From positions 768,001 through 832,000 of the forward strand of contig OZ245817.1 of assembly GCA_965228475.1 (NCBI GenBank): a stretch of DNA of 64,000 bases, in the 5' to 3' direction. Below, piece after piece: positions 3-10,037 of this stretch. Source of the DNA: Myxococcota bacterium. GTDB taxonomy: Bacteria > Myxococcota_A > UBA9160 > JAFDDA01. The translations under genes were made by a program, and so were the position numbers. Under the pieces are notes generated by a model. It ran no database searches. It had not been told where the DNA came from and saw nothing but the letters and a program-made list of their open reading frames with translations. The first letter of the stretch is position 1. Each line of letters begins with the position of its first letter.

Positions 3-506
3 AAGCGCTTCATCTCCATTCCCCACTACCTGATCATGTTCTGCGACATCTTCATCATCGTCGCGGCCATCCAGGTCTGGGTGGACGTGAAGCAGCGCCT
101 GCCCGAGGCGCCCCACGCGACGGTCCGGGTGATCGGCCAGCAGTGGGCCTGGAGCTTCGTCCACCCCGGTGCCGACGGTGCCCTCGACACGGCCGACGAC
201 ATCCGCACGGTCGACGAGCTGCGCGTCGAGGTCGGCAAGCCCTACCTCTTCGAGCTGACTTCCCGGGACGTGCTGCACAACTTCTCGGTCCCGGTGTTCC
301 GATTGAAGCAGGACGCGATCCCCGGGCGCACGATCACCGGCTGGTTCGAAGCGACCGAGACCGGGACGTACGACATCCAGTGCGCGGAGATCTGCGGCAT
401 CGGCCACGGCCTGATGCCGGCTCGCATCGTGATCGAATCGGCCGAGGACCACGCCGCCTGGGTCGCGAGTCAATCTTCCACCCAGCTCGCGGCCGTCGCG
501 AAGTAG
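3..506 (+). CDS. coxB: Cytochrome c oxidase subunit II (5'-truncated by window edge)
   Basis: Frame open from base 3; GQQWAW motif; CuA ligands DVLH...CAEICGIGHGLM; directly upstream of subunit I. Confidence 0.95.
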   Translation, partial: KRFISIPHYLIMFCDIFIIVAAIQVWVDVKQRLPEAPHATVRVIGQQWAWSFVHPGADGALDTADDIRTVDELRVEVGKPYLFELTSRDVLHNFSVPVFRLKQDAIPGRTITGWFEATETGTYDIQCAEICGIGHGLMPARIVIESAEDHAAWVASQSSTQLAAVAK

Positions 507-525
507 CTGGGACCACGGAGCCACC

Positions 526-2244
526 ATGGCCGAGACCATCGAGCACCCTGCACACGGCGACGCCGGACACGACGCTCATCACCACCACGAGATGAGCTTC
601 TGGCAGAAGTACGTGTTCTCCACCGACCACAAGATCATCGCCATGCAGTACATGTTCACGGGCATGGCGATGGCCCTGATCGGAGGGTTCTTCTCCTACG
701 CCTTCCGCATGCAGCTGGCCTTCCCGGGCATGGAAGTCCCGGGCTTCGGCCTGGTCTCGCCGGCGGACTACAACGCGCTGGTGACGAACCACGGCACGAT
801 CATGATCTTCTGGGTCGCGATGCCCGTGTTGATCGCGGCCTTCGGGAACTACCTGATCCCGCTGATGGTCGGCTGCGACGACATGGTCTTCCCGAAGATC
901 AACCGCCTCAGCTACCAGATCTTCCTGCTCTCGGCGATCGTGCTGTTGATCTCGCTCGTGGTGCCGAACGGCGGCTTCGGCGGGGCCTGGACGGCCTATC
1001 CGCCACTCTCCGCGAATCCCAACTACAGCCTCACCCCATTGGGCTCGAGCCTGTGGGTCGTGGCGGTCGCGCTCGAGTTCATCGCCTTCCTGCTCGGCGG
1101 CATCAACTTCATCACCACGGCCATGAACTCCCGCGCGCCCGGCATGAAGCTCTACGACGTGCCGATCGTGGTGTGGATGATCGTCGTGGCGAGCATCCTG
1201 TTCATGGCGTCCGTGGGGCCGCTGATCGCCGGCGCGATCATGCTCTTCATGGACCAGAACATCGGGACCCAGTTCTTCAACCCCGCCTACGGCGGCGACC
1301 CGATCCTCTGGCAGCACCTCTTCTGGTTCTTCGGCCACCCGGAGGTCTACGTCGTGCTGCTGCCCGCCATGGGCATCACCGCCGAGGTCATCACGGTCTT
1401 CGCCCGGAAGAAGCTCTTCGCCTACCGCACCGTGCTCTACACCGTGTTCGGGACCGGCGTGCTCTCCTTCACGGTGTGGGCGCACCATCAGTTCATCGCC
1501 GGCATCGATCCGCGCATGGCGAACGTCTTCACCATCACGACGCTGCTGATCTCCATCCCGCTGGCGGAGATGATGTTCGTCTACGTGGCCACGCTCTACG
1601 GCGGCTCGATCACGTTCTCGACGCCGATGCTCTGGGCGCTCGCGTTCCTCTTCGAGTTCCTGATCGGCGGCGTGACGGGCATCTTCCTGGGCGCGAGCGG
1701 TGCGGACATCTTCTTCCACGACACCTACTTCGTACTCGCCCACTTCCACTACACGTTCTTCCCAATCGCGATCATCGGGACGTTCGCGGGCGTCACGTTC
1801 TGGTTCCCGAAGATGTTCGGCAGGATGATGAACGAGGGGCTCGGCAAGCTCCATTTCTGGCTGACGATCATCCCGTTCAACTTCATCTTCATTCCGCTGT
1901 TCGTGCTCGGCGCGGCCGGCCAGCACCGCCGGATCTACAACTTCGAGAACTACCCGGAGCTGGCCCTGCCCTGGATGCAGGACCTCCGGCAGCTCGCGAC
2001 GGTCTCGCTGGTGATCATGCTCGGCGCCCAGCTCATCTTCTTCTACAACTTCTTCATGAGCCTGGCGCGCGGCAAGAAGGCCGGGAAGAACCCGTGGAAG
2101 GCGAACACGCTCGAGTGGACGGCGGATTCGCCGCCGCCCCACGGCAACTGGCCCGAGGGCCTGCCGACGGTCTACCGCGGCCCCTACGAGTACAGCCATC
2201 CGGACCGCCAGGAAGACTACTGGCCGCAGAACGTCCCGAGCTAG
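526..2244 (+). CDS. coxA: Heme-copper oxidase subunit I, A1-type signature, atypical K-channel
   Basis: TNHG, WFFGHPEVY, WAHH, HDTYFVLAHFHY and RR motifs; GGAG RBS upstream. Confidence 0.97.
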   Translation: MAETIEHPAHGDAGHDAHHHHEMSFWQKYVFSTDHKIIAMQYMFTGMAMALIGGFFSYAFRMQLAFPGMEVPGFGLVSPADYNALVTNHGTIMIFWVAMPVLIAAFGNYLIPLMVGCDDMVFPKINRLSYQIFLLSAIVLLISLVVPNGGFGGAWTAYPPLSANPNYSLTPLGSSLWVVAVALEFIAFLLGGINFITTAMNSRAPGMKLYDVPIVVWMIVVASILFMASVGPLIAGAIMLFMDQNIGTQFFNPAYGGDPILWQHLFWFFGHPEVYVVLLPAMGITAEVITVFARKKLFAYRTVLYTVFGTGVLSFTVWAHHQFIAGIDPRMANVFTITTLLISIPLAEMMFVYVATLYGGSITFSTPMLWALAFLFEFLIGGVTGIFLGASGADIFFHDTYFVLAHFHYTFFPIAIIGTFAGVTFWFPKMFGRMMNEGLGKLHFWLTIIPFNFIFIPLFVLGAAGQHRRIYNFENYPELALPWMQDLRQLATVSLVIMLGAQLIFFYNFFMSLARGKKAGKNPWKANTLEWTADSPPPHGNWPEGLPTVYRGPYEYSHPDRQEDYWPQNVPS

Positions 2245-2256
2245 GACGGGGAAGAC

Positions 2257-2829
2257 ATGAGACCGATCGCCAATACCCGCATCGCTTCCGGAGTCCCGAC
2301 CGGCCGCCTCGCCGTCTGGTGGGTGCTCGCGTCGGAGATCGTGATCTTCGGCGGCGTGCTCGCCTCGTACCTGATGCACCGGCTGGGCAACCCGGACTGG
2401 GCCAGCCAGACGGCATACACCAACGAGTGGATCGGCGGCTTCAACACCTTCGTGCTGCTCACCTCGAGCCTCTCGGCGGTGCTCGCGCACTACGCGGCCG
2501 AGCACGAGCAGGACGGCAAGAAGGCGGCCCGGTACCTCTGGTACACGATCGGAGGCGGCGCGGTCTTCCTCTGCGTCAAGTCCTACGAGTGGTACGTCGA
2601 GATCAGCCACGGGTTCACGATCCAGTCCCACCCGTTCTGGTCGTTCTACTACACGGCGGCGGGCATCCACGCGTCGCACGTCATCGCCGGCATGATCCTC
2701 ATGGCCTTCGTCGCCAAGGACGCCGCCAAGGGCCAGGACCTCCACCGCGTCGAGCTGGTGGGCATCTACTGGCACTTCGTCGACATCGTCTGGATCTTCC
2801 TCTTCCCGCTCCTCTACATCGCGAAGTAG
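2257..2829 (+). CDS. coxC: Cytochrome c oxidase subunit III family protein (short, first copy)
   Basis: LASEIVIF, NTFVLLTSS, GIHASHV and YWHFVDIVWIFLFPLLY motifs. Confidence 0.92.
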   Translation: MRPIANTRIASGVPTGRLAVWWVLASEIVIFGGVLASYLMHRLGNPDWASQTAYTNEWIGGFNTFVLLTSSLSAVLAHYAAEHEQDGKKAARYLWYTIGGGAVFLCVKSYEWYVEISHGFTIQSHPFWSFYYTAAGIHASHVIAGMILMAFVAKDAAKGQDLHRVELVGIYWHFVDIVWIFLFPLLYIAK

Positions 2830-2848: not shown

Positions 2849-3226
2849 ATGGCCGACCACGGCAGTCAGCACTACATCAAGATCTACTATTGGTTGCTCG
2901 CGCTCCTCGTCGTCAGCATCCTCGGGCCCCTGCTCGGGATCCAGTGGCTCACGCTCGTGACGGCCTTCGGGATCGCGTTCGTGAAGGCCTGGCTGGTCAT
3001 CAAGCACTTCATGCACCTGACCGTGCAGCCGGCCTTCGTCGGCTACCTGCTCTCCAGCTGTCTCGTCTTCATGCTGCTCTTCTTCGCCGGAACCGCTCCC
3101 GACGTCATGAAGAAGGACGGGGACAACTGGGAGAAGGAGCACGTGGTCGTCGTCGGAACCGGCGGCCACCACGACGATCACGGCGAAGGTCACGGAGACG
3201 ATCACGGCGGAGACGCCGCCCACTAG
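2849..3226 (+). CDS. Cytochrome c oxidase subunit IV family protein with His/Asp/Gly-rich tail
   Basis: Three TM helices; AFVKAWLV..HFMHL motif typical of prokaryotic COX IV/CyoD; AAGGAG RBS. Confidence 0.85.
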   Translation: MADHGSQHYIKIYYWLLALLVVSILGPLLGIQWLTLVTAFGIAFVKAWLVIKHFMHLTVQPAFVGYLLSSCLVFMLLFFAGTAPDVMKKDGDNWEKEHVVVVGTGGHHDDHGEGHGDDHGGDAAH

Positions 3227-3241
3227 CGCCCCGGGGACGCC

Positions 3242-3826
3242 ATGTCCGCACCCTCCCATCTCGAGCTGGTCGACGCCTCGCGCTCTCGCGCGCCGGTGGA
3301 CAGCAACGTCGTCGGGATGCTCCTCTTCCTGATGGTCGAGGCGATGATGTTCGCCGGCCTGATCAGCGCCTTCATGATCGTGCGCTCCAACGCCATCGAG
3401 TGGCCGCCGCCCGGGCAGCCGCGGCTTCCGGTCGAGCGCACCCTGCTGAACACGGCGGCACTCCTGCTCTCCGGCGTCGTCCTGTTCTACGCCGGCCGGG
3501 TGTTCCTGCGCGATCGCGCTGCTGCGCTCCTGCCCATGGGTCTCGCCATGGGCCTGGGCGCCTTCTTCGTCGGCTTCCAGGGCTGGGAGTGGATCCAGCT
3601 CCTGCGCGAAGGCCTGACCCTGACCTCGAGCCAGCATGGCAGCTTCTTCTATCTGGTCGTCGGGATGCACGCGGCCCACGCCGTCGCGGCCCTGGCCGGC
3701 CTGGCCTGGGCCTGGCACCGGCTCTCGGGCCTCACGCTGAACCCGGGCCAGTTCAAGGCCGTCGCCATCTTCTGGTACTTCGTCGTGGTGCTGTGGCCGG
3801 TGCTCTACTGGCGGGTCTACCTGTGA
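3242..3826 (+). CDS. Second cytochrome c oxidase subunit III-like protein
   Basis: FLMVEAMMFAGL, WPPPGQPRLP, GMHAAH and FWYFVV motifs. Confidence 0.88.
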   Translation: MSAPSHLELVDASRSRAPVDSNVVGMLLFLMVEAMMFAGLISAFMIVRSNAIEWPPPGQPRLPVERTLLNTAALLLSGVVLFYAGRVFLRDRAAALLPMGLAMGLGAFFVGFQGWEWIQLLREGLTLTSSQHGSFFYLVVGMHAAHAVAALAGLAWAWHRLSGLTLNPGQFKAVAIFWYFVVVLWPVLYWRVYL

Positions 3827-4101
3827 GCGGCGTGAGGGTCGCCCTCGTGTTCGCGCTGCTCGCGGCCTGGCCGCGCGCCGCCGAGGCCTGCTCGGTCTGT
3901 TTCTCGACGACCGACGAGAACCGCGTGGCCTTCATCGTGACGACGATCTTCCTCTCCGCGGCGCCCCTCGCGATCCTCTTCGGGATCGGCTCCTGGCTGC
4001 GCCGCAGGATCCTGGCTTCCGAGCAGGCGCACGATGCCGCGCGGCAGGCCGGAGCCTCCTCCGCCGCCGAGCCCACGGCGCCCGTCGCACGCCGCGCCTG
4101 A
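3823..4101 (+). CDS. Small exported/membrane CxxC protein (92 aa) in cox operon
   Basis: GTGA overlap with upstream stop; signal-like segment ending AEA, then CSVCF, one TM helix and RRR. Confidence 0.7.
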   Translation: MSGVRVALVFALLAAWPRAAEACSVCFSTTDENRVAFIVTTIFLSAAPLAILFGIGSWLRRRILASEQAHDAARQAGASSAAEPTAPVARRA

Positions 4102-4875: not shown

Positions 4876-5520
4876 ATGGGAAGCGAATTCGACGGCTCGG
4901 CCTGGCCGAAGGGGACGGTGGTCTCCCTCTCGCGGCTCGCCGGCCGCGGCCAGGCGATGGCGCGGGCCCTCGGGCTGGGCGCGCTGGTCGACGGGGTCGA
5001 CGTCGGCTGCACGCTGCGGGTGCGGCTCGACTCGGGGCGGGCGCTCGAGGTCAGCGCGATCGAAGGCATCGAAGTCGTCGACGATGCGACGCTGCGGATC
5101 GAGACGGCGAACCATCGCTACGAGATGCGTCGCGTCGCGGGCGGCGCCCCGTCGCCCGAAGGAACGCCCTCGATGTTCGACCGCTCCGGGCGCTCGGCGG
5201 ACCCGGAGGCCACCGGGGTCATCCACTACGAGCCGGAGCTCGACGCCCGGCCCGGAGTCTTCGAGGAGGGTTCCCGCGTCCACGTCGTGCAGCTCGACCG
5301 CGACGAGCGCATCGACCTCGGTTCGTGCCGGCTCCTCGGCGGACTCGCGCCCGGTGAGCCCCTCGGCATCGCCACCCCGGGCGGGGTCGTCAGCACGAGT
5401 CCGGTGGCGAAGATCCGGCGCTGCGACGACGGCTCGGTCGAAGTGTCGACCGCGAACCGCAGCTACCGGCTGACCCTCGAGCCGGCCGAAGGCGGCGTCG
5501 GCGAGGGGGCCGAAGCGTGA
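4876..5520 (+). CDS. Hypothetical protein with internally duplicated domain
   Basis: Halves end ETANHRYEM and STANRSYRL; GTGA overlap with next gene; start uncertain (4855 or 4876). Confidence 0.65.
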   Translation: MGSEFDGSAWPKGTVVSLSRLAGRGQAMARALGLGALVDGVDVGCTLRVRLDSGRALEVSAIEGIEVVDDATLRIETANHRYEMRRVAGGAPSPEGTPSMFDRSGRSADPEATGVIHYEPELDARPGVFEEGSRVHVVQLDRDERIDLGSCRLLGGLAPGEPLGIATPGGVVSTSPVAKIRRCDDGSVEVSTANRSYRLTLEPAEGGVGEGAEA

Positions 5521-7280
5521 GCGACGCCGCGCCCAACACGCCGACCGTTCGCGAGCTCGCCCGCGAGGCCGCCGCGCGCGTGCGCGCCGAGAACGCCGCG
5601 GCCGAGGCCTCGACGGCCCTCGGCCAGCTTCGCATCGTGCTCGAGGCGACGGCCGACCTCGTCGCGATCGAGGGCGGCGGCGGGCTCGACTACGCAAATC
5701 CCGCTGCACGTGGCTTCTTCGGGCTCGGCGCGGACGGGGAGGCCGAGGTCTCCCTGCGCAGCCTCGTCTCCAGCGGCGACCGGAGGGTCTTCGATCAGGC
5801 GCTGCAGTCCCTCGAAGACGCCGCGGTGTGGTCCGGCGAGCTGTCCTTCGAGCGCGCCGATGGCGCCGTGGTTCCGTTCTCGACGGTTCTGGTCGACGCC
5901 GGGGACGACTCCGGCGTGCTCCGGCCGGCAGCGCTGTGCCGCGACCTCTCGATCCAGAAGAGCTACGAGGCGGATCTCGAAGCCCGGCTCTACACGGACG
6001 ACGTGACCCGTCTCCCGAACCGGAAGCGCTTCCTCGAGGATGCGGCCCAGGCCATCCGCAACGCGGGAGCGAGGCCCGAATCCGTCGGCCTGCTCGTCGT
6101 CGACCTCGACCGGTTCCGGCTCGTGAACGACACGCTCGGGCCGGAGGCCGGCGACCGGATCCTGAGCGCCGTCGCCGACCGCATCCAGGGCGTGGTCCGC
6201 CCGGAGGACGTCGTGGCGCGACTCGGCGCCGACGAGTTCGCGGTCCTGTGCGAAGGCATCGGCCCCGACACCCTGGCCCAGGTCGCCGAGCGGGTGCGCG
6301 GCTCCCTCGATCATGCCTTCACCGTCGACCGCCGCGATCTCTACATGACCGCGAGCGTCGGGATGGTGGCCGCCTCGGGCCGGCGCAACCGGCCCGAAAC
6401 CCTGCTCCAGGACGCGAGCGCGGCCCTGCATCGTGCCAAGGACGGCGGCCGCAACCGCGCCGAGGCCTTCGACCCCGTGCGGCGGCTCGAGGCGCGCGCC
6501 CGGCTCGAGATCGAGCAGGAACTCCGCAGCGCCCTGCGCCGCGGCGAGTTGAAGCTCGTCTATCAGAAGGAAGTCTGGCTCGGCAGCGGGGATCTGGTCT
6601 GCCTCGAGGCCCTCCTGCGCTGGACCCATCCGAAGCTCGGGCCCGTCTCGCCCGAGGAGTTCGTTCCGATCGCCGAGTCGACCGGGCTCATGCTGCCGAT
6701 CGGGGAGTGGGTCGTCGCGGAGGTCTGCCGGCAGATCCGCGAATGGGAGGCCGAGGGTCTGCAGGGGACGAGCGTCTCGGTCAACGTCTCGCCGCGGCAG
6801 CTCGCGAGCCCGCACTTCGTCGAGCGCGTCCGCGGCATCGTCGAGAGCAACGGCGTGAAGCCCGAGCAGATCAATCTCGAGGTGACGGAGTCGATGATGG
6901 TCGACCACTCGCGGACGGTGATCGGGCGCCTGCGCAGCCTTCGCGAGGCCGGCTTCACGCTGATCCTCGACGACTTCGGGACCGGCTACTCCTCCCTGAG
7001 CCAGCTGCGGAACCTGCCCTTCAGCGTGCTGAAGATCGACAAGTCCTTCGTGCTCGACCTGATCGAGAACCCGCGAGACCGCCCGCTCGTCGACGCGATG
7101 ATCCGCATGGCCCACGCGCTCGGACGGATGGTCGTGGCGGAGGGCGTCGAGTCCCAGGCCCACGCGGACGTCCTGCGCGAGCTCTCGTGCGAGATGGCCC
7201 AGGGCTGGCACTTCGGGCGGCCGGCGAGCGGCGCCGAGATCACCGAGCTGCTCCTGCGCGAGGCCGCCAAGGAACGTTAG
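5517..7280 (+). CDS. PAS-GGDEF-EAL c-di-GMP signalling protein (likely phosphodiesterase)
   Basis: YANPAA (PAS), LPNR, DLDRFRLVND, RPED I-site, GADEF, EALLRW, DDFGTGYSSL, KIDKSF, AEGVE. Confidence 0.93.
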   Translation: MSDAAPNTPTVRELAREAAARVRAENAAAEASTALGQLRIVLEATADLVAIEGGGGLDYANPAARGFFGLGADGEAEVSLRSLVSSGDRRVFDQALQSLEDAAVWSGELSFERADGAVVPFSTVLVDAGDDSGVLRPAALCRDLSIQKSYEADLEARLYTDDVTRLPNRKRFLEDAAQAIRNAGARPESVGLLVVDLDRFRLVNDTLGPEAGDRILSAVADRIQGVVRPEDVVARLGADEFAVLCEGIGPDTLAQVAERVRGSLDHAFTVDRRDLYMTASVGMVAASGRRNRPETLLQDASAALHRAKDGGRNRAEAFDPVRRLEARARLEIEQELRSALRRGELKLVYQKEVWLGSGDLVCLEALLRWTHPKLGPVSPEEFVPIAESTGLMLPIGEWVVAEVCRQIREWEAEGLQGTSVSVNVSPRQLASPHFVERVRGIVESNGVKPEQINLEVTESMMVDHSRTVIGRLRSLREAGFTLILDDFGTGYSSLSQLRNLPFSVLKIDKSFVLDLIENPRDRPLVDAMIRMAHALGRMVVAEGVESQAHADVLRELSCEMAQGWHFGRPASGAEITELLLREAAKER

Positions 7281-7284
7281 GGCG

Positions 7285-9912
7285 CTAGCCCACGATGTTG
7301 ACGAGTCGCCCGGGGACCACGATCACCTTCTTCGGCGCGCGTCCCTCGAGGAACTTCTGCACGCGCTCCGAGGCGAGGGCGGCCGCTTCGACGGCGTCCT
7401 TCCCGGCCTCCGCGGGGACCTGGATCTCGTCGCGGCGCTTGCCGTTGACCTGAACCGCGAGGGTGATCGTGTCTTCCACCAGCATCGCCGGGTCCGCTTC
7501 GGGCCAGGGGGCGTAGGCGAGGGACTCGCCGTGGCCGAGCTTGCTCCACAGCTCCTCGGCGATGTGCGGCGCCATCGGCGCGAGCAGCAGGACGAACGCT
7601 TCGGCCGCCGCCCGCGGCACCGGGTCGCCGACGTCGCGCACGAAGATCATCAGCTTGGAGATGGCCGTGTTGAAGCTCATGGCCTCCATGTCGCGGGTCA
7701 CGCCGTCGATCGTCCGGGCGAGGAGGCGCCGCTGCTCTTCACTCCCTTCGCCGTCGGGGAGCGCGCGCAGGGCGTCGCCCTCGTCCTCGTCGACGAGGAG
7801 CCGCCACGAGCGCTGGAGGAAGCGGTAGACGCCCTGGGTGCCGTCCGTCGACCACGGGGCGCCCTTCTCGAGCGGGCCCATGAACATCTCGTAGAGGCGC
7901 ATGGCGTCGGCGCCGAGGTCGGCCACGACTTCGTCCGGCGAGATCACGTTGCCGCGGCTCTTCGACATCTTCTCGCTGACCTCCTCGAGCGGGAGGTCGT
8001 CGATGTCCGGGTGGAGCGGCGTGCCGTCTTCGTCACGGCGGACGTCGGCGAGGTTCACCCAGCGGGCCTTCACCTCGGTGTCGGTCGGGACGTGGATGGC
8101 GCGCTCCGCGCGAACACTCACCTGGGAGGCCGGAACGGCACGGGCTTCGAACGACGGGTCGTCGGCGAGGTTGTCGTCGTAGTAGCGGTAGCTGTAGCCC
8201 TGGACCATGCCCTGATTCACGAGGCGCTGGAACGGCTCCTTCGTGTGGACGAGGCCGAGGTCGTAGAAGACCTTGTGCCAGAAGCGCGCGTAGAGCAGAT
8301 GGAGGACGGCGTGCTCGGCGCCGCCGACGTAGAGGTCGACCGGCATCCAGTAGCGCTCCGCCTCCTCGGACCAGGCGGCATCCGGGTTCTGCGCGTCGCA
8401 GAAGCGCAGGTAGTACCAGCAGCTCCCGGCCCACTGGGGCATGGTGTTCGCGTCGCGCTCGGCGGGCTGGCCCGTCGACGGGTCCGTCGTCTGGATCCAA
8501 TCGTCGACCCGGGCGAGGGGGGAGCGGAAGTCGCCGCTCGGCTTGAAGTCGTCGAGCTCCGGGAGCAGGAGCGGGAGCTCCTCGAGCGGGAGAAGCTTCG
8601 TCGTGCCGTCCTCGCAGTGGATCAGCGGGAAGGGTTCACCCCAGTAGCGCTGTCGGCTGAAGAGCCAGTCGCGAAGCTTGTACGTCACCTCCGCTTCGCC
8701 GCGGCCGTGCTCGACGAGCCAGTCGATCATGCGGCGCTTGGCGTCGGGCGTGGCGAGCCCGTCGAGGAAGTCCGAGTTCACCGCGGAGCCCACGCCGGGG
8801 AAGGCGGCCTCCTCGACGTTGCCCCCGGAGACGACCTCCACGATCGGCAGGTCGAAGGTGCGGGCGAAGGCCCAGTCGCGCTCGTCGTGCCCGGGTACGG
8901 CCATGATGGCGCCGGTGCCGTAGGTGGCGAGGACGTAGTCCGCGATCCAGACCGGGATGCGCTCGCCGCTCACCGGGTGCACGGCGAAGGCGCCGGTATC
9001 GACGCCGGTCTTCTCGTCGGTGTCCGCCGTGCGGAGACGCTCGCTCTTGTGCTTCACGAGATCGACGTAGGCCGTGACGTCGGCGCGCCGGTCTTCGCGG
9101 GTGATCTTCTCGACGAGCGGGTGCTCCGGCGCGAGCACCATGTAGGTCGCACCGAAGAGCGTGTCCGGCCGCGTCGTGAAGACCTCGATCGTCTCGCCCG
9201 GGTGGTCGGCGAGATCGAAGGTGATGCGCGCGCCCTCGGACCGGCCGATCCAATCGCGCTGCATCTTCTTGATGGCCTCGGGCCAGTCCAGCCCTTCGAG
9301 GTCCTCGATCAGCCGGTCCGCGTAGGCGGTGATCTTCAGCATCCACTGGCGCATCGGCCGCCGCTCGACGGGGTGCCCGCCGACCTCGCTCTTGCCGTCG
9401 ATCACCTCTTCGTTCGCGAGCACGGTGCCGAGCGCCGGGCACCAGTTCACCGGCACCTCCGCCTGGTAGGCGAGCCCGCGCTCGTGGAGCTTCGTGAAGA
9501 TCCACTGGGTCCACTTCACGTAGCCCGGGTCCGTCGTGTCGACCTCGCGGGACCAGTCGTAGCTGAAGCCGAGCGAGCGGATCTGGCGCTTGAAGTTGGC
9601 GATGTTGCGCGCCGTGGTCTCACGCGGGTGCGTGCCGGTCTTGACCGCGTACTGTTCGGCCGGGAGGCCGAAGGCGTCCCAGCCCATGGGGTGCAGCACC
9701 GCGAAGCCGCGCATCCGCTTGTAGCGGGCGACGAAGTCCGTCGCCGTGTAGCCCTTCGGGTGGCCGACGTGCAGCCCGTCGCCGGAGGGGTAGGGGAACA
9801 TGTCGAGGACGTAGTACTTGGGCTTGTCCGGGTCGATCTCCGCCCGGAACGTCTCGTGCTCTTCCCAATGGGCCTGCCAGCGGGCCTCGATGGACTTCGG
9901 ATCGTACGGCAT
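7285..9912 (-). CDS. leuS: Leucine--tRNA ligase
   Basis: [22 protein letters not shown], editing-domain TTRPDT and [21 protein letters not shown]-terminal VPGRLVNIV; start at MPYDPK. Confidence 0.98.
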
Positions 9913-10037
9913 GGGCGGAGAGTGCCGGTGCCTCCGGTCCCAGTCAACGCCGTCGCGGCGGCTTCGAACGATGCTCACCGGCCGTCGAGGGCGGGCGCGC
10001 CGCCCCAACCCCGGGCCCCCCTGCTAGCCTGCCGTCC

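Follow-up and report, generated by a model that had tools for sequence, protein, structure and literature searches.

Can an A1-type heme-copper oxidase do its work without a K channel and, if it can, by what route do its protons arrive? This question is raised by coxI, a gene in a 64,000-nucleotide stretch of DNA from a Myxococcota bacterium (NCBI GenBank assembly GCA_965228475.1, contig OZ245817.1, positions 768,001 to 832,000 of the forward strand), which is analysed here and is referred to as the window. The K-pathway lysine is treated as essential in model A-family oxidases (mutant K362M), and a first reading made from the letters of the window (the sequence-only reading) had proposed that coxI encodes a variant lacking the entire channel. 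That proposal has held: as judged from alignments, the whole canonical K pathway is lost in the subfamily of oxidases to which coxI belongs, including the glutamate at its entrance in subunit II.

Loss of the K pathway

The translation of coxI is free of stops and matches the Pfam profile PF00115 with 430.7 bits. Its score of 579.8 bits against the NCBIfam profile TIGR02891 (CtaD_CoxA) lies under the equivalog cut-off of 670.75, and it is therefore regarded as a divergent subunit I. A model made with AlphaFold2 (AF2; predicted local distance difference test score, pLDDT, of 87.1) has the 12-helix fold of the A family. All of its top 50 Foldseek matches are A-family chains, with template modelling (TM) scores of 0.86/0.91 to 7ate_A and 0.86/0.90 to 1m56_A, and the crystal structure entry of the K362M mutant (3om3) is among the matches. 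In the tree described below the protein is nested among A-family representatives, and the glutamate of its GHPEVY motif (E273) marks the A1 subtype, as against the Tyr-Ser of A2, so the assignment to the A1-type heme-copper oxidases stands.

A phmmer search against Protein Data Bank (PDB) chains aligned coxI with those of Rhodobacter sphaeroides and Paracoccus denitrificans (E=6e-124), residues 283-385 lying on residues 296-398 of R. sphaeroides 1m56_A as one ungapped block with an offset of +13. We take the R. sphaeroides residues of interest to be S299, H300, T359, I361, K362, S365, S197, S200 and S201, and the canonical residue of each column was read from 145 homologues that contain the lysine. 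Ala286 stands at the S299 position, where 97% of the Lys-containing homologues have Ser, Leu346 at that of T359 (Thr 58%, Ser 41%) and Glu348 at that of I361 (Ile 76%, Val 22%), while Met349, Val352 and Glu287 occupy the positions of K362, S365 and H300. The exchanges of S299, T359, K362 and S365 for Ala, Leu, Met and Val, which the sequence-only reading had made out by eye, are borne out by this block and by the multiple alignments, and so is the glutamate one residue before the lost lysine, the two codons being read directly as gag and atg. When set against the A-type K-channel residues listed by Sousa et al. in 2011 (Lys354, Thr351, Ser291 and Tyr280 in P. denitrificans numbering; PMC3084760), coxI has kept the Tyr alone, the others being M349, L346 and A286.

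This pattern belongs to a clade. A word-indexed search with coxI returned 7,996 proteins at E<=1e-50. To the best 120 of these (79-90% identity) we added the representative P0122 and 18 loci taken from the genomes of species representatives; together they make up what we call the crown clade (n=139), in which aligned identity to the query never falls below 65%. Position 346 holds Ile, Val or Leu throughout (139/139), position 349 is Met in 134 sequences and Leu in five, position 348 is Glu in 138, Ala286 is kept in 97-98%, and position 287 is Glu in 92/139 and Asp in 47/139. Within residues 341-354 of helix VIII there is no Lys or Arg in any of the 139 sequences. The Glu-Met/Leu pair, being conserved in 138 of them, is thus a natural variant. 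The PLAEM motif, put forward earlier for testing as a clade marker, is present in the form P-[IL]-A-E-[ML] in 120/120 of the nearest homologues (the best 120 of the 7,996), a result that also excludes a sequence error.

The loss extends to subunit II. We take the Glu column in the context L-E-x-x-W-T to be the K-channel entrance glutamate, described as E78 of P. denitrificans in a preprint (10.1101/2020.03.01.968255). It is Glu in 53/55 subunit II sequences from outside the lineage. In 16 crown sequences the same column holds Gln in five, Leu in four, His in three, Glu in two and other residues in two; the coxII of the window has Gln63, its codon falling in the first bases. The subunits II of L019 and L022 were not recovered by the CuA-motif filter.

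A remodelled D-channel and new polar residues in the membrane

The sequence-only reading had described the D-channel as intact, which is right for its entrance Asp, three Asn and the Glu, and fails at the S197, S200 and S201 positions, where coxI has Glu184, Ala187 and Phe188. The relevant motifs begin at residues 106 (FGNY), 118 (DDMVFPKIN), 191 (GGINF) and 270 (GHPEVY). In P. denitrificans numbering the A-type D-channel comprises Asp124, Asn199, Asn113, Asn131, Tyr35, Ser134, Ser193 and Glu278 (PMC3084760). Seven of these eight are kept in coxI, as D119, N194, N108, N126, Y42, S129 and E273, and the eighth, at the Ser193 position, is Phe188. By an offset that we assume, Ser193 is S201 of R. 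sphaeroides, and this position is Ser or Thr in 140/145 of the Lys-containing sequences. Glu184, Ala187 and Phe188 are each present in 139/139 crown sequences. An acid anywhere at residues 182-188 of helix IV is found in 0/145 Lys-containing homologues and in 19/50 of the other Lys-less sequences, being absent from the remaining 31/50. An extra Asp118, directly before the entrance Asp119, is 100% conserved.

Further polar residues are fixed elsewhere in the membrane. Helix VII carries Thr302, Thr306, Thr310 and Ser314 at intervals of four residues (i, i+4, i+8, i+12), conserved in 93%, 99%, 99% and 100% of the crown, where Lys-containing sequences have Ala/Gly, Ala, Ile (99%) and Gly/Ser. Position 377 of helix IX is Glu in 123 crown sequences, Thr in 15 and Asp in one, as against Leu or Met in Lys-containing sequences. 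The second transmembrane helix of subunit II has gained His71 and Asp78, the latter inside a four-residue insertion that is absent from 53/55 other subunit II sequences; the two that do have it belong to L034 and L037, an independent Lys-less pair, and carry Glu there.

Distribution of the clade

Members of the clade are found in several phyla and share a conserved cassette of six genes, in the order cytochrome c-coxII-coxI-coxIII-coxIV-coxIIIb, which is complete in 16 of the 18 crown loci and cut by contig ends in the other two. The labels of these loci, given to metagenome-assembled genomes (MAGs), are Myxococcota, Polyangiales, Archangiaceae, Bradymonadia, Gemmatimonadales, Gemmatimonadaceae, Longimicrobiales, Bdellovibrionaceae and Eisenbacteria, and one crown record, Puniceicoccaceae bacterium K14, has no MAG label. 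Soil and marine bacteria share the clade, and it is frequent among the Myxococcota and Gemmatimonadota that live in soils and sediments. In a representative library clustered at 50% identity it amounts to one full-length representative (75% identity) and fragments; the next full-length representatives are at most 46% identical, except for P0123, at 63% over matched stretches and 56% over the full alignment A1.

Two copies call for separate mention. L018 bears the title of a Klebsiella pneumoniae MAG and has every gene of the cassette (72% identity). For such a gene set this label is implausible, which points to mis-binning or to mislabelling of the record. L046 (6001-8312), from a long-read MAG, holds a cassette copy that is 62-78% identical and whose coxI and coxIII are matched by tblastn in several separate pieces, which could be due to assembly frameshifts or to decay of the copy. 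L046 (coxI at 62% by tblastn, split) was left out of the alignments, as was L025 by the open reading frame (ORF) filter, and L011 is cut by a contig end.

Order of the changes

FastTree (LG+gamma) was run on 210 sequences, each with a coverage of 80% or more, and the resulting tree was rooted at the midpoint. In it the 25 crown tips form a single clade (support 0.999), to which P0123, Lys-less and with P-I-A-V-I-T in helix VIII, is sister (0.985). Next outward come L023, L042 and L049 (1.0), none of which has the lysine. A group of 36 tips, 34 of them with the lysine, in the motif P-S-A-I-K-T-F-N-W, is sister to the whole set of 29 Lys-less tips (0.979). Because the crown is nested among Lys-less tips and the sister group mostly has the lysine, its loss is placed by the tree as a single event at the base of the 29-tip lineage.

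The other changes did not all come at once. The four basal Lys-less sequences all have Glu or Asp at 184, the three with a recovered subunit II (L023, L042 and L049) have Asp78, and the hydroxyl at the S201 position was also lost at the base, before Glu348 or the threonine ladder appeared. The same four have Val or Ile in place of Glu348, and the ladder and Glu377 in part only. Gains confined to the crown are Glu348 (138/139), Glu377 (123/139), Thr306 and Thr310 (99% each) and His71 of subunit II (16/16). Since the basal sequences are without it, Glu348 appears to be a later addition and not the primary compensation.

Lys-less oxidases are less unusual than the sequence-only reading had assumed, and in this tree make up 74/210 tips in 12 maximal Lys-less clades. 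The helix IV acid occurs in 0/136 tips with the lysine and in 44/74 without it, in six maximal clades, all Lys-less.

Two other Lys-less groups were seen in passing. L034 and L037 (Acidobacteriaceae and Terriglobia MAGs) form a Lys-less pair inside the Lys-containing sister group, with P-A-T-I-V in helix VIII; their subunit II is without the entrance Glu column, and the Glu of its insertion takes the place of Asp78. A group of long A-family proteins (about 800-860 aa; P0147, P0181, P0188, P0196, P0203, P0230, P0239 and others) reads Gln where Lys362 would stand. Its members also carry a Glu in helix IV, at column 185, and another in the Asn207 column, and the Asn of FGNY is missing. This P0147-P0239 group looks like another rebuilt pair of channels, going by its alignment columns.

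Possible routes for protons

The reading that we prefer, though we hold it tentatively, is that a substitute proton input path has formed in the old K region, at the interface of subunits I and II. Electrons would pass from the co-encoded diheme cytochrome c to CuA, then to heme a and to the site formed by heme a3, CuB and Tyr275, where O2 would be reduced. Protons would enter by the D-channel through its kept entrance (Asp119, Asn108, Asn126, Asn194 and Ser129) and Glu273, the upper part of this channel having been remodelled to take in Glu184 as a second buried acid. In the reductive half the protons, which are normally the business of Lys362, would be delivered by a replacement route lined with carboxylates and hydroxyls, from Asp78 and His71 of subunit II by way of Glu348, Glu377 and Glu/Asp287 of subunit I and the Thr302-Thr306-Thr310-Ser314 ladder to Tyr275. 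Such a path would explain why helices VII, VIII and IX, and helix 2 of subunit II, have so many fixed polar residues. What is observed is which residues were lost and gained, how well they are conserved and in what order the tree places the changes; that the gained residues conduct protons, and which route they serve, we infer. Rough depths from the cytoplasmic side, calculated from the helix limits of the AF2 model (VI 259-293, VII 300-313, VIII 329-357, IX 366-388) at 1.5 Å per residue, are 12-16 Å for Glu348, Glu377, Thr310 and His71 of subunit II, about 21-22 Å for Ser314 and Asp78, and about 27 Å for Tyr275, so that the series of residues is plausible in the model as far as depth is concerned.

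Several observations weigh against this substitute path. An acid at position 287 is also common among Lys-containing oxidases and so is no new feature, and Glu377 is replaced by Thr in 15/139 crown sequences. Glu348 is dispensable, to go by the alignment, since it is missing from all four basal Lys-less sequences and from one crown member, L020 (an isolate by its record label), which has Ile at 348. The insertion in subunit II is placed at residues 76-79 by MAFFT and at 81-86 by HMMER. The sequences of the tree were drawn from the 150 best representatives for a Lys-less query and 80 loci, so that relatives of the query are over-represented. The recurrence of the helix IV acid with loss of the lysine fits an enzyme that uses only its D-channel at least as well. 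Finally, no purified or assayed member of the clade was found in the literature searched.

A D-channel-only enzyme, in which all chemical and pumped protons pass through the D-channel, a branch of Glu184 and Glu273 serves the reductive half too and the changes in the old K region are neutral filling of a disused cavity, is possible but less likely. The order of events speaks for it, given that the acid at 184 and the loss of the S201 hydroxyl arrive at the base of the lineage, ahead of Glu348 and the ladder. So does the distribution of the helix IV acid (0/145 Lys-containing sequences as against 139/139 in the crown and 19/50 of the other Lys-less ones, and the six maximal clades), as do the invariant Asp118 beside the entrance Asp119 and the hydrophobic nature of Leu/Ile346, Met349 and Val352, which is what a closed cavity would lead one to expect. 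However, the 31/50 other Lys-less sequences without the acid mean that it is no general requirement, and polar residues fixed in the membrane at the level of Thr306, Thr310 and Glu348 (99%) and of His71 and Asp78 of subunit II (16/16) are hard to explain as neutral. The Phe at the S201 position may narrow the upper D-channel and not widen it, and we know of no heme-copper oxidase shown by experiment to run on the D-channel alone, which also weighs against such an enzyme here. The sequence-only reading had offered both a D-channel-only enzyme and a Glu-based path; both are still live, although the particular Glu it had pointed to, Glu348, is not indispensable. The two are not mutually exclusive, and sequence alone cannot separate them.

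The preferred reading, the substitute path, can be extended to a third design of proton input, in which an acid-based path between subunits I and II together with the added Glu184 evolved stepwise and spread between phyla as a cassette; this is doubtful. If it is true, the confinement of the helix IV acid to Lys-less A-family enzymes would amount to a general rule of compensation.

A probable working oxygen reductase

The coxI product is very probably the catalytic subunit of a working A1-type cytochrome c oxidase that reduces O2, presumably of the aa3 type, a view that draws on its catalytic residues and on the genomes that carry it. The six His ligands and the GHPEVY Glu and Tyr are intact, as had been noted: alignment A1 shows no variation at H89, H271, H320 and H408 and very little at H321 and H406, and the invariant cross-link tyrosine of helix VI, Y275, together with the six His, places coxI with the O2-reducing members of the heme-copper superfamily. 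Subunit II (P0121) has the CuA motif C-x3-C-x3-H-x2-M and the upstream His, as in a cytochrome c oxidase and not a quinol oxidase. The aa3 type, that is heme A, is suggested by a heme O synthase gene, which lies in the cox cluster with a DUF420 gene, and by a heme A synthase gene (CtaA) elsewhere in the genome.

PF00115 has three matches in the host genome, a single contig of 5.0 Mb that is 96% complete. They are coxI, its sole A-family oxidase, a cbb3 CcoN (TIGR00780, 669.6 bits, above the cut-off of 583.15) and a NorB-like protein, P0272. The last of these has 447 aa (ORF 1381-2724, reverse strand, of L003, G000:C1:1502143-1506348) and carries the nitric oxide reductase (NOR) motifs H-L-W-V-E and H-H-Y-Y-Y. 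Its NCBIfam match is weak (ccoN, 43.7 bits), and a 149-aa ORF lies directly upstream; by their sequences the two are probably the NorB and NorC of a cNOR. No cytochrome bd was found in the genome at its 96% completeness. In a sample of 151 genomes of the phylum, 40 carry a copy of coxI at 71% identity or more, including 20/23 of the same order, and four more have one at 56-59%. Only seven of the 40 have a second A-family match (E<=1e-40), one of which is interrupted by nine TGA codons, so that coxI is the sole A-family oxidase in 33/40 sampled carriers as well as in the host. Because it is the sole such oxidase in most hosts, and is 71-90% identical across phyla, it is neither a relic nor a side activity.

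A changed job, in which the enzyme would reduce NO, act as a peroxidase or scavenge oxygen without pumping and so have no need of a K pathway, is improbable, and NO or peroxide as substrate, which the sequence-only reading had entertained, is not supported. Such a change would agree with the score under the CtaD equivalog cut-off, and A, B and C family oxygen reductases can slowly reduce NO (PMC11214002). However, the cross-link Tyr, the three CuB His, Glu273 and the CuA site are invariant, and the same paper has O2 reduction requiring the Tyr, which is absent in NORs. The NORs are known by the motifs H-x-arom-x-E and HH-x-arom-arom-x17-E and by the lack of a cross-link Tyr (PMC3084760), and coxI, with GHPEVY and its Tyr, is neither a cNOR nor a qNOR by these features and has no NOR-type Glu motif. 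The separate NorB-like gene and the standing of coxI as sole A-family oxidase in the host and in most carriers tell against a changed job as well.

That the channel lysine is present after all, through a shifted register or on another helix, or that the gene is decaying, is excluded for practical purposes: Lys296 (97% of the crown) and Arg/Lys301 are indeed close to where helices VI and VII end on the cytoplasmic side, but Lys296 sits in a loop outside the helices of the AF2 model, the pairwise block across helices VI-IX is ungapped, three independent MAFFT alignments give the same columns with no Lys at the 362 position, residues 341-354 of helix VIII include no Lys or Arg in any crown sequence, and the identity kept across several phyla shows purifying selection.

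Gene cluster and neighbouring genes

The cox genes are co-directional and their cluster continues past the left edge of the window, where the preceding 17 kb of that genome (L004) complete it. The full order is heme O synthase (NF003349, 319.4 bits), the DUF420 gene, a 288-aa diheme cytochrome c directly upstream of coxII, and then coxII, coxI, coxIII, coxIV, coxIIIb and orfX (Table 1). A Pfam search matched orfX to no family, and tblastn matches to it follow coxIIIb directly in 10/17 crown loci that extend that far; it could encode a subunit of the oxidase, or a factor in its assembly, that has no name yet. Beyond the cluster, a 587-aa ORF at 5517-7280 (forward strand) has the look of GGDEF/EAL-type signalling, and a 907-aa ORF at 7285-10008 (reverse strand) resembles a leucyl-tRNA synthetase, both judged by eye from their translations.

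Table 1. Genes of the cox cluster and residues discussed in the text, with positions in the window unless another locus is named.
Feature	Position	Strand	Basis or remark
3' part of coxII (subunit II, CuA)	3..506	+	PF00116, 69.9 bits; TIGR02866, 129 bits
Full coxII	L004 15814-16506		230 aa, protein P0121
Subunit II His71	codon 24-26	+	transmembrane helix 2; 16/16 crown
Subunit II Asp78	codon 45-47	+	transmembrane helix 2; 16/16 crown, 3/3 basal Lys-less
coxI, A1-type heme-copper oxidase subunit I	526..2244	+	572 aa, P0001; profiles, AF2/Foldseek
Helix IV Glu184 (1075-1077), Ala187, Phe188 (1087-1089); S197/S200/S201 positions	1075..1089	+	remodelled upper D-channel
Glu273 (E286 position) and Tyr275 (Y288 position) in GHPEVY	1342..1350	+	100% in crown clade; identities in phmmer alignment
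Helix VI Ala286 (S299 position) and Glu287 (H300 position)	1381..1386	+	alignment
Helix VII hydroxyl ladder Thr302, Thr306, Thr310, Ser314	1429..1467	+	
Helix VIII Leu346 (T359), Glu348 (1567-1569), Met349 (K362; 1570-1572), Val352 (S365)	1561..1581	+	
Helix IX Glu377, crown-specific membrane acid	1654..1656	+	alignment
coxIII, five-helix type subunit III, 190 aa	2257..2829	+	PF00510, 57.2 bits; adjoins coxI in crown loci
coxIV, caa3-type subunit IV	2849..3226	+	TIGR02229, 38.2 bits (cut-off 37.25); position kept in crown loci
coxIIIb, second subunit III-like gene, 194 aa	3242..3826	+	PF00510, 76 bits; position kept
orfX, small ORF with CxxC and one helix, start codon uncertain	3826..4101	+	tblastn position

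Relation to known oxidases

The canonical A1 aa3 oxidases of R. sphaeroides (1m56) and P. denitrificans (1ar1/7ate) have the same fold (Foldseek TM 0.86-0.93) at 38-40% identity, and share with the coxI clade the metal ligands, the equivalents of Glu286 and Tyr288, the D-channel entrance and a CuA subunit II. The clade differs from them in its replaced K residues and subunit II Glu, in the altered S197, S200 and S201 positions, in its extra membrane acids and hydroxyls, and in having two subunits III, of the five-helix type, and a subunit IV of caa3 type. Its nearest relatives, the Lys-containing sister clade (MAGs of Acidobacteriota, Binatia and Gemmatimonadota), are A1 enzymes at 40-49% identity which keep the Lys, Ser/Thr at T359, Ser at S299 and the subunit II Glu, and have neither the helix IV acid nor the insertion.

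Lys-less A-family oxidases are already in print. PMC8239418 has the K-channel lost repeatedly, and Table_3 of the same paper, by Degli Esposti et al. in 2021, sets out the K-channel columns of about 100 oxidases. Its Lys-less rows are A2 enzymes of iron oxidisers and Thioclava and A1 enzymes of Elusimicrobia, Calescamantes, Methylacidiphilum and Halobacteriovorax, which in the paper and its preprint (10.1101/2020.03.01.968255) are labelled 'modified', 'hybrid' or 'KC-channel' by the authors. Like the coxI clade, these oxidases have a hydrophobic residue at the K354 position, a replacement at the E78 position of COX2 and a D-channel that is essentially kept. The pattern of the clade (Y, A, M, I/L, V, E) is in no row of Table_3, nor has that table a row for a Lys-less oxidase of Myxococcota or Gemmatimonadota, and Glu348, Glu184 and the subunit II His and Asp lie outside its columns. 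The clade and its correlated substitutions were not found in the full-text literature, subscription journals and preprint supplements, which may cover the clade, being outside the scope of that search; relative to the literature found, they are new.

Gene order and channel design each have a parallel. The COX operon subtype a-III, with two COX3 genes (PMC8239418 supplement), shares the order coxII-coxI-coxIII-coxIV-second coxIII, but its rows in Table_3 (Burkholderia, Methylocystis, Flavobacterium and Sphingobacterium) all keep the K-channel, the comparison having covered the rows of that table. The cbb3 oxidases, in which Ser, Thr, His and Tyr side chains from helices VI-VIII line a single KC channel free of Lys (PMC8239418 supplement, PMC3084760), are similar in concept, but belong to another family and have their cross-link Tyr on helix VII, and the equivalence of positions with the clade is by sequence mapping only. 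The 'KC-channel' label calls for protonatable residues at the equivalents of S240, S244, H247 and Y255 of Vibrio cholerae CcoN (Degli Esposti et al. 2021, PMC8239418). By a provisional mapping these columns would fall in coxI on A299, V303, T306 and S314, two of the four being protonatable. The operon of the clade has its two genes for subunit III in common with those of subtype a-III. We take coxMNOP of Bradyrhizobium japonicum to be an operon of that type.

Significance

The earlier cataloguing of Lys-less A-family oxidases from sequence lessens the weight of the present finding. A natural A1 enzyme without the whole K pathway, serving as the sole aa3-type oxidase of most of its hosts, would nevertheless mean that the two-channel scheme is not obligatory. 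The clade offers candidate compensating residues that are open to mutagenesis, namely Glu184, Glu348, Glu377, Thr306 and Thr310 of subunit I and His71 and Asp78 of subunit II, and its proton-pumping yield bears on the energetics of abundant aerobes.

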